Positions 17,940 to 47,852 of a stretch of DNA of 64,000 nucleotides are shown here, piece after piece. Made by a program: the position numbers and the translations under genes. Position 1 is the first letter of the stretch. Each line of letters starts with the position of its first letter. The stretch is from the NCBI GenBank assembly GCA_963742735.1, contig CAVUMN010000004.1, positions 32,001 to 96,000 of the forward strand, written 5' to 3'. This DNA comes from an uncultured Actinomycetes bacterium (GTDB lineage: Bacteria; Actinomycetota; UBA4738; JBBDTT01). A model generated the notes under the pieces. The model ran no database searches. It was given only the letters and a program-made list of their open reading frames with translations, and had not been told where the DNA came from.

Positions 17940-20900
17940 ATGAGCGGACTGGCCTGCGCCGCCTGCAGTACCGAGAATCCCGCTGACGCTCGCTTCTGCA
18001 TGGGCTGCGGCGCCGCGCTCGAGCGCGTTTGCCCCTCCTGCTCCACGCCCGCTCCCGGCGCCGCGCGCTTCTGCATGAACTGCGGCGCCGCGCTCGACGG
18101 AACGCCCGCGCCGGCGCCCGTGCCGCAGGTCGAGCGCCCGCCGGAGGAGCGGCGCCAGGTCACGATCCTGTTCGCCGACCTCTCGGGCTACACCGCGGTG
18201 GCCGAGCGGATGGACCCGGAGGCCGTCAAGGGGCTCGTGGACCGCGCCCTGATGCGGCTCGGCGCCGAGGTGGAGCGCTACGGCGGCAACGTGGACAAGT
18301 ACATCGGGGACAACGTGATGGCGCTCTTCGGCGCGCCGGTGGCGCACGAGGACGACGAGGAGCGCGCCGTGCGCGCGGCGCTCGGGATGCAGGCCGCGAT
18401 GACCGAGGTGAACGAGGGGCTGCCGCCGGGAGTGGACTTCCAGCTGCGGGTGGGCATCAACACCGGCGAGGTGATGGCGGGCGCCGTCGGCGAGAGCTAC
18501 ACCGTCACCGGCGACACCGTGAACGTGGCGTCCCGGCTCCAGAGCGCCGCCCGGCCCGGAAGCGTGACCGTTGGCGAGCGGACCATGCGCGCCACCCGCG
18601 GCGCGGTGCGCTACGAGGAGCTCAGCCCGCTCGAGCTGAAGGGCAAGTCCGAGCCGGTGCCCGCCTGGGAGGCGCTGAGCCTGACGGCCACGCACAGCGT
18701 GGGCCGCGCCGCGGCGGCGCACGAGTCGCCGCTGGTGGGCCGCGACAACGAGCTGGTCACGCTCGAGACGCTCTACGAGCGCGTGGTGCGAGAGGGCTCC
18801 CCGCACCTCGTGAGCCTCATCGGCGAGGCCGGCGTGGGCAAGACGCGGCTGCTGCGCGAGTTCGAGCGGGTGCTCGGCGAGCACTCGATCGCTCCCACCG
18901 TGCGTACCGGGCGCTGCCTCCCGTACGGCTCAGGCATCGTCTTCTGGGCGCTTGGCGAGGTGCTGCGCGCCGAGTGCGGGATCGTGGACTCCGACTCGGC
19001 GGAGGAAGCGTGGCGGAAGCTCTCGACCTACGTCGCCGGCCTGTTCGGCAACGGTCGGAGCTCAACGAGCCGGGCGAGCGCGAGGCCGCGCTGATCGGCC
19101 GACTGCTCGGAATCGAGGTGCCGCCGGAGCTGGTGCCGTCCGAGCGCGACCCGGAGCGGCTGCGCGAGGCGTTCTTCTCGGCGCTGCGCATGGGCATGGA
19201 GAAGATGGCCAGCCGCCGCCCGCTGGTGCTGGCGTTCGAGGACATCCACTGGGCCGACGACGGCATGCTCGACGCGATCGAGCACCTCGCCCAGTGGGTG
19301 CGCGCGCCGCTGATGCTCGTCTGCCTCGCGCGTGACGAGCTGCTCGACCGGCGTCCCGGCTGGGGGGCGGGGCGCCGCTCGGCCACGCAGCTGCTCCTCG
19401 ATCCGCTGGCCTCCGAGTACACGCACGAGCTGGTGGCCGCCCTGATCCCCGGCGGCGACGACGTGGTGTCGAAGGTCGTGGAGCGCTCGGGCGGCAATCC
19501 GCTCTTCGCCGAGGAGATGGCGCGCCGGGTGGCCGAGGGCAACCTCGGCGCCGCCGAGCTTCCGGAGACGGTGCAGGCGGTGCTGGCCGCGCGCCTCGAC
19601 GCGCTCGATCCCTTCGAGCGGCGTCTCGTGCAGCAGGCCGCCGTGGTGGGACGAACGTTCTGGGAGGCCTCGCTGGCCCCGCTTGCCGAGGCGGAGGGCA
19701 GGGAGCTCGGCAGGGCGCTCACGGTGCTCCAGGAGAAGGACATCCTCGCCCCCGGCGCCGAGGGCAGGCTCGCGGGCGAGCGTGAGCTCGCGTTCAAGCA
19801 CGTGCTGATTCGCGACGTGGCCTACGGGATGCTGCCCAAGGCGGTGCGCTCGCGGAAGCACTTCGAGGTCGGCGCGTTCATCGAGGAGCGCGCGGGCGAC
19901 CGGACCGACGAGATGGTGGCGCTGCTGGCCGAGCACTACGGCCGCGCGGCGTCGCTCGGCCGCGAGGGCGCCATCGCGGCCACCGAGCTCGCGCCCATGC
20001 GCGAGCGGGCCATGCGCTTCCTGGAGGAGGCCGGCGACGCCGCCGCGCTCCTCTACTCGAACCGCGAGGCCGCCGCCCACTACCGCCATGCGCGCGACGT
20101 GGGCGCCGACCAGGACCTGGCCGTGCGCGTGCGGGTGTCGGAGAAGCTCGGCGACGTGTCCCTCCGGCTGGGTCGCGTGGACGAGGCGATCGGCGTGTGG
20201 CAGGAGTGCCTCGACTGGCACCGCGGGCAGGAGGACCTCGAGCGGGTGGCGGACCTCCACCGCAAGACCGGCGCGGCGCTCTCGCACAAGGGCGAGCGCA
20301 GGTCGGCGATCGAGCACTACCAGCGCGGCATCAACCTGCTCAAGGACGGCCCGCCGCGGATCGAGCTGGTGCGCCTCTACGAGGAGGCGGCTTGGCTCTA
20401 CCTGCACACCGGGGACAACATGCTCGCCATCTACGCCTCGGAGAAGGCGCTGCGGCTGGCCGAGCGGCTCGGCGAGACGCGCGCCGCCAGCCGCGCCCAC
20501 GGCATCTTCGGGCGCGTGTTCGGCCGCATCGGCGACACCGAGAAGGCGCGCCAGAACCTGGAGCGCGCGGTGGAGCTGGCGCGCGGCTCGGACGACGGCG
20601 AGAGCATCCTCGCGCTGTCGGCGCTGGGCCGCCACCTCGAGATCTCCGAGGCGGACATGGACGGCGCCCGCGAGGCCTACCACGAGGCGCTGGCGCTGGC
20701 CGAGCGCGTGGGGATGCTCCCCGCCCAGGTGGAGCTCCACGCCTGGCTCGCGCAGCTGTCCGCCTACTGCGCCGAGTGGGACGACGTGACGCGCTCCACC
20801 GACGCCAGCGCCGAGCTGGCCGAGCGCGAGGGCCTCGTGGGCAAGCTCTGCCTCCCCTACTCGCTCCGAGGGCTCCTGCTCTGGCGCGAGGGCCGCCTCG

Positions 20901-21466
20901 AGGAGGCCACCGTGCTCTTCCATCAGGCGCACGAGCTGGCGGAGCAGGTGGGCTGGTCCGAGATCGCGTTCCAGGCGCTCTTCGGGCTGGCGCTGGCCCT
21001 GCGGGACTCCGGCGACTACGCCAGCGCCGCCGACGCGCTCGACCGCGCGATCGACGTGTGCGAGCGGGCCGGCCTGCTCGCGCAGTCGATCCAGGCCACC
21101 GCCGCGCGCGCCGTGGTCCTGTCCCTCTCCCAGCGCCCCGGGCCGGCCCGCGAGGCCGCCCGCGAGGCCGCCGAGCTGGCCGAGCGGATGCACTACCCGA
21201 TCGGCCGTGCCGCGGCCCTGGAGGCGCGCGGGCTGTCCGCCGAGGACCCCGAGGAGGGAGTGGCCCTGCTCGCCGACGCCGAGACCACCTGGCGCGGGCT
21301 CGGCCGCCCGCTCGAGGCCGCCCGCTGCGGGCTCATGGCCGGCCAGCGGCTCGTGGGCGTCCAGCCCGACCGGGCTCGTGAGCTGCTCGAAGCGGCAGCC
21401 GTAGAGACCGAGCGACTCGGCGTGCCGCACCTGGCCAAGCGGGCGCGGGCACTCGTGCCTGGGTAG
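17940..21466 (+). CDS. Class III adenylate/guanylate cyclase with double zinc ribbon, AAA ATPase and TPR domains; frameshift near 19054
   Basis: CAAC..NP..ARFC x2; ERRQVTILFADLSGYT, KYIGD, GDTVNVASR; Walker A GEAGVGKT; FEDIHWAD. One base missing at AAC-GG-TCG-GAG. Confidence 0.9.
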
Positions 21467-21475
21467 CCAGTCATT

Positions 21476-21795
21476 GCGCGTTCGCTTGTGCTCGCGGGTC
21501 CTGTCTCCGTCGCGTCTCCTCGTTCGAGGACCAAACGACGGTCCTCGCCCGAGAAGTCGCAACGTCGCCACCCGCTCGACAGCACCGCCGGCTGACCAAA
21601 CAACTGCCCTCGTTTAGAGCGCTAAGCGACGACGAACGGAACCCCGGGACGGCCGGTCCCTCATCGCTTTTACAAAAGGGGGGCGTTTCGCTTGTCGAGC
21701 GGGTGGCGACGGCGGCGATTACCGGATCAGTGAGCTTGCGAGCTGAAACGGTGATCGCTGCCGGAGACAGGACCCGCGAGCAGCAGCGACCGCGC
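21476..21795. repeat. Intergenic element: two inverted copies of a ~95-105 nt hairpin motif (nested inverted repeats)
   Basis: Perfect 21-bp inverted repeat 21489-21509/21762-21782, extending imperfectly to 21476/21795. Perfect 19-bp inverted repeat 21563-21581/21693-21711. Each unit has its own 50-53 nt hairpin between the arms. Confidence 0.9.
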
Positions 21796-22997
21796 TAGGG
21801 CGTCTGGTCGGCACCCGCAACCACGACCACACCAGCGTCGCCTGCGAGCGCCTGTGTCTCTGCATCGATCGCCTCGCGCTGCGGGATCTTCAGCCGCCGG
21901 CTCACCACCACGGCCTCGCGCCTGTGGCCGCTCGCGTAGAGGACCACCGACTCCGCGCGCTGCTGCTCCTGGTTGTCCGCGTTCCCGAGCGTGCCGAGGT
22001 CGAAGCCCAGCCGCTCGACCTCGTCGCCGATCCCCGCCGCCAGGCCGGGCTCGAGCGTTCCGTTCAGGACGGCCACGGTCACGTCCGCGGGGTTGACCGC
22101 CTGGCCGCCGTTGCCCTGACGTCGCCCGCGTCGTGCGGTGTCCTCCGAGCCACTTCCACCGGCGTTGCTGGTCGCGGGCTCGGAGTCGTCTCCTGTCAGC
22201 TGCGAGACGGCGAACGCCGCGCCGCCGCCGAGCACGAGCACGCCGGCCACGGCCAGCACGACGATCCTGGACCGGGTGAGCCCGCCCTCGCGGGCGGCGC
22301 CGGCCGACGGCGGGATGATCGCGGTGGGCTGCGGTGTGGGCCGCGCGAGAGGATCGGGGCGGGAGAAGCGTGGCGGGGTCGGCGGAGTCGGGCGCGCCTG
22401 TCCCGCGGGCGTGGCGGGCCGCGCCGCGGACGGCACGGCCACGGGAGGCGGTGGCTGGCCGGCGGGCTTGTCGGTGGCGGGCGCCTGGGTGTCGCCGGGC
22501 GCGGCGGGAGTGCCCTGCTGCACCGCCGGCGCCGGGGGCGCCGTTCCGGCGGCCGCCTGGGGCGCGCCGGACTGCTGAGCCTGGCCGGCGGGCGAGGGCG
22601 TCTTGTCCGCGTCGTCGCCGGCCGCGGGCTCGGGCGTGCCTCCGTCAGCGGGGCCCTGCTTGCCCTGGCCGGCGGGCGTGGCTGCTCCCGGCCCGCCGGG
22701 GCGCTCCGCCGTGGCTGCGGCGGCCACTGCCGTGGCGGGCCGCGCTCCGGCCGCTGCTGCCACTGCCGGAGCGGGAGCGGCGGGCACCTGGGGCGGTCCC
22801 GAAGGCGTCTGTGATGGCGTGCCCGGCTTGACCGGAACCGCCGCCCCGGCCGGCGTGGGCACCGAGGGCGGGGTGCCTGCCGGCTTGGCCTGAGGCTGCG
22901 CCACGACCCGCTGGGGGACCGCGGTGGCGGGCTGCGCCGCGCGCTCGGGCGCTCGTCCGGCCCATTCGCGCAGCCGCTTCACATCTCGCGCCTGCGC
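21795..22997 (-). CDS. LytR C-terminal domain protein with long Pro/Ala-rich region; N-terminus missing
   Basis: C-terminal VTVAVLNGTLEPGLAA...VVVVAGAD LytR_C domain, preceded by a TM helix. Coherent sequence begins at AQARDVKRLREWAGRAPER with no start codon. Confidence 0.75.
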   Translation of the reverse strand, partial: AQARDVKRLREWAGRAPERAAQPATAVPQRVVAQPQAKPAGTPPSVPTPAGAAVPVKPGTPSQTPSGPPQVPAAPAPAVAAAAGARPATAVAAAATAERPGGPGAATPAGQGKQGPADGGTPEPAAGDDADKTPSPAGQAQQSGAPQAAAGTAPPAPAVQQGTPAAPGDTQAPATDKPAGQPPPPVAVPSAARPATPAGQARPTPPTPPRFSRPDPLARPTPQPTAIIPPSAGAAREGGLTRSRIVVLAVAGVLVLGGGAAFAVSQLTGDDSEPATSNAGGSGSEDTARRGRRQGNGGQAVNPADVTVAVLNGTLEPGLAAGIGDEVERLGFDLGTLGNADNQEQQRAESVVLYASGHRREAVVVSRRLKIPQREAIDAETQALAGDAGVVVVAGADQTP

Positions 22998-23059
22998 AGC
23001 GCCCCGGCCGGGGCGGGGATCAGGAGCAGGAGCACGAGGAGGAGCGAGGCGCGTCTCAC
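22998..23059 (-). other. 5' fragment (signal peptide only) of a secreted protein, cut at the probable junction
   Basis: GTG at 23059 reads MRRASLLLVLLLLIPAPAGA-L, then continues out of frame into the LytR_C gene and stops. Confidence 0.55.
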
Positions 23060-23096
23060 CCGGGTCGAGTTCTGCGCGCGTGCGAGACTCTCCTGT

Positions 23097-23621
23097 ATGG
23101 CGCACTTCGCGGTCACCGCGATCGGAGCCGACCGCCCTGGCATCGTGGCGGCGCTCACGGGTGCCCTCCACGGCCTGGGCGGCAACCTGGAGGACGTCTC
23201 CTCGACGATCCTGCGCGGCCACTTCGCGACGATGCTCGTGGTCGACGCGCCGGGCGACGCGGACGGGATCCGCTCGGCGCTCGAGGACGCGGCGGGCCCC
23301 CTGGGCGTGCAGGTCCACGTGGCCGACGTCGAGGCCGGCGCGCCCGAGCGCCCGCGCGCCACGCACGCGCTCACCGCGTACGGGTCGGACCGCCCGGGGA
23401 TCGTCTCGGGCCTGACCGCGCTGCTGGCCGAGCGCGGGGTGAACATCACCGACCTCTCCTGCCGGCGCACCGGTGGGGGCGAGCCGATCTACGTGATGGT
23501 GGCCGAGCTCGCGCTGCCGGATGGCGTCGACGTCGCCGAGCTGGAGGCCGCCATCCGCGAGACGGCGGCGGGCATCGGGGTCGACGTGAGCTTCGGGCCC
23601 GTCGAGGTCGAGACCCTCTAG
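23097..23621 (+). CDS. Tandem ACT-domain protein (GcvR-like)
   Basis: Two G.DRPGIV ACT repeats. Confidence 0.88.
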   Translation: MAHFAVTAIGADRPGIVAALTGALHGLGGNLEDVSSTILRGHFATMLVVDAPGDADGIRSALEDAAGPLGVQVHVADVEAGAPERPRATHALTAYGSDRPGIVSGLTALLAERGVNITDLSCRRTGGGEPIYVMVAELALPDGVDVAELEAAIRETAAGIGVDVSFGPVEVETL

Positions 23622-47778: not shown

Positions 47779-47852
47779 TGGAGGTGAGGGGATTTGAACC
47801 CCTGGCCTCTGCAGTGCGAGTGCAGCGCTCTACCGGACTGAGCTACACCCCC
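47779..47852 (-). tRNA. tRNA-Ala(CGC)
   Basis: GGGGGTG/CACCTCC acceptor stem with G3:U70; anticodon arm CTGCA-CTCGCAC-TGCAG; GTTCAAATC T-loop; CCA not encoded. Confidence 0.97.

Follow-up and report, generated by a model that had tools for sequence, protein, structure and literature searches.

An inverted hairpin pair as a probable dimer of a non-autonomous palindromic repeat dispersed in Thermoleophilia-type actinobacteria

INTRODUCTION

The described repeats that come closest in kind to the element analyzed here are the Rickettsia palindromic elements (RPE). These are hairpin-forming sequences of ~100–150 bp that make up ten families with many in-frame insertions (PMC10969869), that are without a known transposase, and that lie both in intergenic DNA and, unusually often, in frame in unrelated housekeeping genes, to which they add a peptide (PMC10969869, PMC3733652). 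We rank next the CGTC-tagged REPs of Di Nocera et al. (2013), which include RPE-4 and RPE-6, have no dedicated transposase, occur as intragenic units and are mostly head-to-head dimers; they have 8–9 bp stems, 4–5 nt loops and a CCA tail and were reported from five phyla, with no mention of Actinobacteria in the paper (PMC3733652). The REP, REPIN and BIME sequences are multicopy extragenic palindromes that are often arranged head-to-head, have stems that vary in sequence among subfamilies but keep their pairing, and include occasional intragenic copies (PMC3733652, PMC3116915, PMC2817692). Our search of open-access full text and bioRxiv found no literature on such repeats in Thermoleophilia.

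Other kinds of inverted or structured elements have hallmarks of their own. MITEs have terminal inverted repeats and a target-site duplication, along with a parent IS that has the same ends. A kink-turn has a 3-nt bulge followed by tandem G.A/A.G pairs, and its opposite strand has no additional unpaired bases. Integron attC sites combine an R-box core (GTTRRRY / RYYYAAC) with a basal stem, an asymmetric unpaired region, and a variable terminal hairpin.

Here, we analyze a pair of inverted, hairpin-forming units in a 64,000-nt stretch of DNA from an uncultured Actinomycetes bacterium (the whole stretch is called the window below). A preliminary description, made from the sequence alone, had interpreted the pair as a possible REP/REPIN-like mobile repeat, a protein-binding RNA, or a small ribozyme, and our results support this interpretation in part. 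We conclude that the window feature is probably a single dimer belonging to a family of non-autonomous palindromic repeats that is dispersed among Thermoleophilia-type actinobacteria.

RESULTS

The window element is a head-to-head dimer between convergent stop codons

The element and its parts are listed in Table 1. As the preliminary description had stated, there are two outward-facing, inverted units with identical 19- and 21-nt arms and unlike but foldable middles, on which the sequence, a repeat finder, and folding agree. The pair occupies the gap between two convergent stop codons, also as described, one ending a plus-strand ORF with TPR and AAA_16 matches and the other a minus-strand ORF with a LytR_C match. 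The 19-nt arm, TGTCGAGCGGGTGGCGACG, is 100% complementary between the units by both sequence and repeat finder. The identical 21-nt CGGAGACAGGACCCGCGAGCA is included in the outer inverted repeat, whereas the middles of the two units, 53 nt in unit A and 50 nt in unit B, have no sequence relation.

Likeness to other copies corrected the extent of the pair: the repeated unit is the whole pair with its spacer, a non-coding, multicopy composite of ~305 bp. A TAG or TAA lies at, or ≤~6 nt from, the B end in all four composite loci of genome G298 (L216, L217, L218, and L219). Within the spacer, we found two weak terminator-like sites, one per strand (21665–21685 on the plus strand and 21620–21606 on the minus strand), against 0.3 expected. 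The spacer folds no better than its shuffles (z 0.3 and 0.2), and the idea that it is structured was withdrawn for this reason. Both window units are in the orientation that is commonest elsewhere, such that the mRNA of the neighboring gene would bear the pyrimidine-loop strand.

The preliminary description had recognized no named family, and Rfam 15 likewise gave no match on the element (21000–22300, E up to 10) and none on two related loci. Across the whole window, only a minus-strand tRNA gene at 47779–47852 reaches the gathering score of an Rfam family.

Table 1. Positions of the composite element, its parts, and the adjoining stop codons in the window
Feature	Position	Strand	Remarks
Composite element	21484..21788		Head-to-head dimer: unit A + spacer + unit B; limits based on similarity to three further copies from genome G298
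Outer inverted repeat	21476-21509 / 21762-21795		34 nt, 91% complementary
Unit A	21489..21581	-	Sequence, repeat finder, fold; covariance model 52 bits, E 2.3e-11
Unit A 5' arm	21581-21563	-
Unit A P1	21575-21570 with 21499-21494	-	GCGGGU paired with ACCCGC
Unit A loop	21569-21565 opposite 21507-21500	-	GGCGA opposite GAGACAGG
Unit A variable hairpin P2	21564-21508	-
Spacer	21582..21692		111 nt; sequence kept among four composite copies
Unit B	21693..21782	+	Sequence, repeat finder, fold; covariance model 56.7 bits, E 1.5e-12
Unit B 5' arm	21693-21711	+
Unit B P1	21699-21704 with 21772-21777	+	GCGGGU paired with ACCCGC
Unit B loop	21705-21709 opposite 21764-21771	+	GGCGA opposite GAGACAGG
Unit B variable hairpin P2	21710-21763	+
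TAG stop of ORF 18029..21466	21464..21466	+	17 nt before composite; TPR / AAA_16 regulator-like
TAG stop (CTA on +) of ORF 21795..23366	21795..21797	-	LytR_C domain protein; adjoins B end

The units belong to a dispersed family

A search of relatives for the arms, which the preliminary description had proposed, uncovered further copies. The pattern GGGTGGCGA-N35-65-GAGACAGGACCC was run over public genomes, one per species, and both arms with a gap of 35–65 nt were found in at least 129 stretches, nearly all of them from MAGs of Solirubrobacterales, Thermoleophilaceae, or "Actinomycetes" by record title, where shown. Hairpins are present in 129 of the 133 units in these stretches; the four loci left out (L012, L025, L075, and L079) are hairpin-less between the arms and have titles that name other phyla. 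A 61-nt core was found in 102 of the 127 units (among the 129) that have 45 nt of flank, and identical stems reappear at unrelated loci in different genomes.

A covariance model (R1) was built on 88 units with distinct stems. With 150 candidates scored per genome, the model matched at least 24, 29, 17, 40, and 12 times in five carrier genomes, and close (-,+) pairs of units are common in all five. Among the preliminary readings, the undescribed REP/REPIN-like mobile repeat is supported.

One carrier genome, G298, holds a locus (L017) that is near-identical to the window and has the composite at four loci, one of which is the window's counterpart. The order is unit B(-), a spacer of ~127 nt, and unit A(+), and the three other composites align to the window from ~21484 to 21788 with 83.6–88.7% identity over 304–320 nt. 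Solitary unit B also occurs in this genome (L220–L222). At L220 (G298:C9), two direct copies of unit B (598–672 and 1582–1656) lie 984 nt apart, one apparently within and one just past a gene that, by eye, reads like the C-terminal OB-fold end of an error-prone DnaE2-type polymerase.

Outside the assembled genomes, the plasmid and phage collections searched for the element gave no match, and among the public sequencing runs that share words with the element none is RNA, the share being ≤0.15 of the words in all. Contigs assembled from four soil runs gave only short pieces, one of which (224 nt) covers the unit A stem, the spacer, and the unit B stem (21526–21745). A 393-nt contig from soil run X2 matches the window at 21182–21467, one base past the stop of the TPR gene, and then runs for ~107 nt unlike the window; this contig may come from a relative that lacks the element. 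In genome G237, the start of an rplB-like gene (L232:1501–1557) resembles the unit A stem (window 21512–21570), with 85% identity across 59 nt that includes perfect stretches of 19 and 15 nt, and we judged this match to be probably chance or low complexity in hairpin-prone coding sequence.

A constant base module lies under a hairpin of free sequence

Folded as RNA, the GGGUGGCGA strands of the two window units gave -61.3 and -66.5 kcal/mol (z -4.4 and -5.3), and 0/200 shuffles were as good; their opposite strands gave -43.1 and -49.6 kcal/mol (z -1.7 and -2.5). The predicted fold is the one given in the preliminary description, in which P1 (GCGGGU/ACCCGC) closes an internal loop of GGCGA versus GAGACAGG beneath a long hairpin, P2.

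The further claim that structure is kept without sequence was upheld in an alignment of the units (A1), where standard pairs fill 97.7% of 1496 pair cells. The covariation score of A1 is 0.374, compared with 0.095 in shuffled alignments (0/500 as high) and 0.03–0.06 with the 3' partner slid. Eight of the 17 pairs are altered on both sides, the three outer pairs of P1 flip from C-G to G-C in 29, 13, and 22 sequences, and the base of P2 is altered on both sides in 35–48 sequences. The four composite copies likewise differ by compensatory changes in unit A, such as CGAGGACC/GGUCCUCG versus CAAGAACC/GGUUCUUG. An outer stem between the flanks (P0), suspected by eye, received no support from RNAalifold.

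Since the invariance of the arms in A1 (GGGTGGCGA and GAGACAGGACCC) was imposed by the search pattern, the true constants can be read only from 20 weaker covariance-model matches, which were fetched free of the arm constraint. Constant in these variants are N5-GGGU, G(G/A), the C...G pair that opens P2, (A/G)CAGG, and ACCC-N5, whereas ordinary pairs take the place of the tandem G-A of the window units. The tandem G-A part of what had been called an invariant loop does not extend to the wider family. P2 sorts into several unrelated classes, with stems of 15–25 bp nested in P1. What defines the family is therefore the fixed base module, above which the hairpin is free in sequence.

The unit strand, which carries the purine loop, is the stabler one in 117/127 units. 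Among 120 unique units, we counted 99 G.U pairs versus 18 A.C 1x1 mismatches, both counts being inflated by subfamily inheritance or founder effects, and the strand that wobble pairing favors is mostly antisense to host genes.

Copies inside genes use one reading frame per orientation

The flanks of the units resemble coding sequence on the strand opposite the unit. Reading frame R1, with the peptide ...AGPVSD-(~11 variable residues)-SSPP(A/T)..., is open across the unit in 122 of 124 units and stays open for ≥150 nt on either side in 48. A GC-phase filter for placement inside a gene was too strict (9/124) and was replaced by a Pfam scan of the unit-spanning ORFs (143, i.e., 146 less 3 duplicates), of which 45 have matches at E 1e-5 or better. 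Domains flank or cross the unit in 13 R1 ORFs and lie N-terminal to it in 5, and they lie on either side of the unit in 4 ORFs of frame F1, which has the opposite orientation and reads GGDD...SETGP. This amounts to strong in-gene support for 22/124 units (18 R1 and 4 F1). The five Pfam hits in other frames (three in F2 and two in R0) are all solely C-terminal of the unit. Beyond the 22 strongly supported cases, 23 ORFs, including FtsZ, ParA, S9, and NuoC, have a domain solely C-terminal to the unit, which may lie within an N-terminal extension or leader in such cases.

The in-frame hosts are an Lhr-type helicase, two E2 acyltransferases, DnaX, S1, S2, a PHP-domain polymerase, and a DHODH subunit. 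Units sit between the lipoyl and E3-binding domains of the E2 acyltransferases, between domain III and the C-terminal domain of DnaX (in either orientation), and in the protein tails of S1 and S2. As judged from the translated ORFs, many in-frame copies would add predicted peptides to housekeeping proteins. The minority orientation is exemplified by L223:523–583 (G295), where a RibD-like ORF carries the unit, in the sense orientation, in its C-terminal region and reads AGGDD...SETGPA there. With respect to gene arrangement, the gene downstream of the unit is on the opposite strand in 50/76 cases, on the same strand in 19/76, and unclear in 7/76.

One protein loop is empty or filled among related species

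To illustrate the occupancy of a single site, we compared the Lhr loop between TLERL and RIGLSAT in 80 species. The loop is short (9–19 residues) in 22 species, holds the window-type family with full arms in 6, and holds a sister element sharing only the GGGTCCTGYC...CCACCC arms in 9; it contains other inserts, many of them another palindromic repeat (GEGSADKQRGGSGDPSPD type), in 41 and is without a motif in 2. Remnants that keep the outer parts and have lost the hairpin occur at L170 and L197, and in orthologous E2 linkers the stem variant differs between species. The Lhr and E2 patterns fit repeated gain, loss, or replacement and are a poor fit with a fixed functional RNA. Because the presence and absence are across species, such patterns could also result from a combination of old insertions and deletions, and no recent transposition event was seen in this comparison.

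The second palindromic in-frame insert of the Lhr loop is unrelated to the window family; it encodes GEGSADKQRGGSGDPSPD / GGSSPDNSRGGSGEDPP-like peptides, has an 18-bp perfect stem, and is present at L143, L144, L146, L199, and ~37 more loci. The Lhr loop is a hot spot that several families of hairpin repeats occupy.

The window copy is single in its genome and lies in a shared block

The window assembly (G000) comprises 3.08 Mb in 5 contigs and is 88.9% complete. It holds both arms together only at the two window units, according to exact arms and a whole-file fuzzy scan, and the covariance model matched only these two units among the best 150 of 5554 candidates scored. Of 293 further genomes in the class to which the window belongs, none has the exact arms, and the covariance model had no match in 150 genomes of the class under stricter filters (23 candidates scored each); these tallies take in G283, G258, and G010, which are flagged unpublished.

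Window positions 1–22996 (G000:C4:1–54996) are collinear with G298:C21:110647–165679. Sequence identity is 99.4–99.5% along ~41 kb of this block and 88.5% in its first 13.6 kb, against 66–73% in the other parts of the two genomes that were compared. The block begins at the contig end and breaks inside ORF 21795..23366(-), and the element is 1.2 kb inside it. Since at least 55 kb are near-identical to a contig of a multi-copy carrier, the window copy probably came with the block, in what would be a horizontal transfer from the carrier lineage, or else the contig is chimeric. An empty orthologous site, which the preliminary description had proposed to look for, was not found for the window's own composite. 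No close relative holds the locus at the DNA level, and nothing in G000 closely matches the sequences that flank the G298 copies. In the part of the block outside the window, G000:C4:18263–21567 has many offset self-matches of ~75% to G298:C21, a pattern that suggests a long, internally repetitive gene or array.

No transposase tested is common to the carriers

A linked HUH/RAYT or IS200-type transposase, for which the preliminary description had proposed a search, did not emerge in the five carriers, three of which are single chromosomes. Y1_Tnp (PF01797) was found in 0/5 of them, with matches in 6/14 known genomes in a control search, and OrfB_IS605 also in 0/5. DEDD_Tnp_IS110 and DDE_Tnp_1 were each found in 1/5 and rve in 3/5, and as such none of the five Pfam families tested is common to all carriers. 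A target-site duplication suspected by eye received no support from a comparison of flanks, the best flank-to-flank mean identity being 0.44 over 127 units. No parent IS or autonomous element with matching ends was seen, and two gene-sized intervals between inverted units, considered as candidates for autonomous elements, hold ribD, and a lyase or nuoD.

DISCUSSION

The repeats described here are a new REP/RPE-like hairpin repeat family. The family resembles RPE in its dispersed hairpins, in its in-frame genic copies that add a peptide, and in having no known transposase. In-frame insertion that leaves unrelated protein genes unbroken, a hallmark of RPE, is seen in the family (22/124 units) but not in the intergenic window units. 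The likeness is one of kind, and sequence homology with RPE is unlikely given the GC content and phylum, the window family being found in high-GC actinobacteria. It further differs from RPE in its constant basal stem and asymmetric purine loop under a free hairpin, in the use of one frame per orientation, and in the head-to-head dimer with a conserved spacer that recurs as a composite. With the CGTC-tagged REPs, it shares orphan palindromes, intragenic units, and head-to-head dimers.

The many dispersed copies and the inverted pairs (in all five carriers, with four composites in G298) are as expected of REP/REPIN sequences. However, REP/REPIN palindromes carry an unpaired GTAG (or CGTC) tetranucleotide as a tag at one end, whereas the units here have no GTAG, and their sole CGTC is not terminal but spans the base of P2 and the loop of the opposite strand. 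REP/REPIN stems are 5–13 bp long, whereas those of the window family are 15–25 bp and lie inside a second stem, and REP/REPIN sequences have a RAYT/Y1 (IS200-type) transposase gene, which they typically flank and whose Pfam family is in none of our five carriers. In addition, since its two units have different stems, the window dimer cannot form one long REPIN hairpin. The composite is also similar to a MITE in its size of ~305 bp, its inverted ends (34 nt, 91%), and its non-coding, multicopy nature, but no direct repeat in the flanks exceeds 0.44 mean identity (127 units; the composite ends are fuzzy), and its inverted repeats are kept as hairpins of unlike sequence, not as matching protein-binding sites.

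The features of the fold invite an explanation at the RNA level, namely a functional structured RNA reused many times per genome as a 3'-UTR stabilizer or terminator, an antisense sRNA, or a K-turn-like protein-binding RNA. Such a role is suggested by the strong, strand-biased fold, by the conserved purine loop with, in the window copies, a tandem G-A beside a 3-nt bulge, by the many copies (both window ones included) just past stop codons, by the preponderance of downstream genes on the opposite strand, and by the two terminator-like spacer sites. Nevertheless, the better-folding strand is mostly antisense to the neighbor or host gene, both orientations occur within coding sequence, and one protein loop is empty or filled among related species; moreover, the tandem G-A is missing from the covariance-model-found variants, and Rfam has no match at E up to 10. 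The window units also depart from a kink-turn, with GGC-GA on one strand and 6 extra bases (GACAGG) on the other. Given genic copies in either orientation, presence and absence at the same site, and at least 12–40 matches per carrier, we consider a dedicated RNA of this kind unlikely, contrary to one of the preliminary readings. The same observations count against the other, a small self-cleaving ribozyme carried by the repeat, to which we attach almost no credence: although the repeat is multicopy and structured and its internal loop is conserved, no ribozyme model in Rfam 15 matches, the conserved part is only a 2x5 loop, and sense-strand cleavage would destroy the mRNAs of the in-frame genic copies.

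Selection could instead act on the protein, with the repeat kept for flexible Gly/Ser/Pro/Asp-rich linkers (AGPVSD...SSPPA or GGDD...SETGP) and the palindrome being incidental. All 22 of the 22 strongly supported genic units do use one frame per orientation, both peptides are hydrophilic, and it is in linkers and tails that multidomain proteins host the units. We nonetheless regard this explanation as quite improbable, as the window copies and many more are intergenic, the middle peptide is free to vary while base pairing is retained, conservation is at the nucleotide level with compensatory stem changes on two arms, and the hairpin is kept equally in the intergenic and genic copies seen here. 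A folded recombination site similar to attC, which would serve a tyrosine or other site-specific recombinase and mark gene cassettes, would match the constant basal stem, the asymmetric unpaired region, the variable terminal hairpin, the strand-specific fold, and the place after stops. However, the GTTRRRY / RYYYAAC core is absent from both window units, and copies lie within essential genes and are scattered rather than arrayed, which leaves such a site very improbable indeed.

A dispersed selfish repeat, by comparison, is well supported, and we infer how it might spread from the arrangement of its parts. Each unit is predicted to be a nested hairpin, in which GGGU/ACCC and five variable pairs form an outer stem. 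This stem closes a purine-rich, asymmetric internal loop with G(G/A) on the 5' side and (A/G)CAGG on the 3' side, beside a C-G pair and below a long hairpin of free sequence. The constant base module could be the recognition handle for a putative trans-acting, structure-specific DNA enzyme that acts on the folded single strand, and the long hairpin would be a generic structural requirement. We propose that the stems are wholly different between subfamilies yet always paired because the module is what would be recognized and the hairpin would serve this generic need alone. Copies would then last only where they do little harm: just past stop codons, where they often stand head-to-head between convergent genes like the window pair, and in disordered protein linkers, where each orientation is read in a single frame.

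A more far-reaching version, which we regard as doubtful but worth stating, is that the base module (N5-GGGU, G(G/A), C...G, (A/G)CAGG, ACCC-N5) is the handle of an undescribed, strand-specific hairpin-DNA mobilization system that operates without classical transposases. In such a system, a host or orphan enzyme would copy folded single strands into new sites; in an alternative form, the host would exploit the system as a builder of protein linkers and gene-end structures.

For the dispersed repeat family itself, the consequences are more immediate. Selfish DNA inside protein-coding genes, known chiefly from Rickettsia, now extends to abundant soil actinobacteria, and a basal stem and purine loop that stay constant beneath the free hairpin provide a clean signature by which every copy can be found. 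The elements reshape the linkers of core proteins (E2, DnaX, Lhr, S1, S2, and probably FtsZ and ParA) as well as convergent gene ends. Gene calling, indel-based markers, and structured-RNA searches in these genomes will be misled as a result. The five carriers have no RAYT, TnpB, IS110, DDE_Tnp_1, or rve gene in common. If an undescribed hairpin-DNA mobilization were indeed at work, a superfamily whose sister families share only the module would represent a new class of mechanism, beyond another REP.
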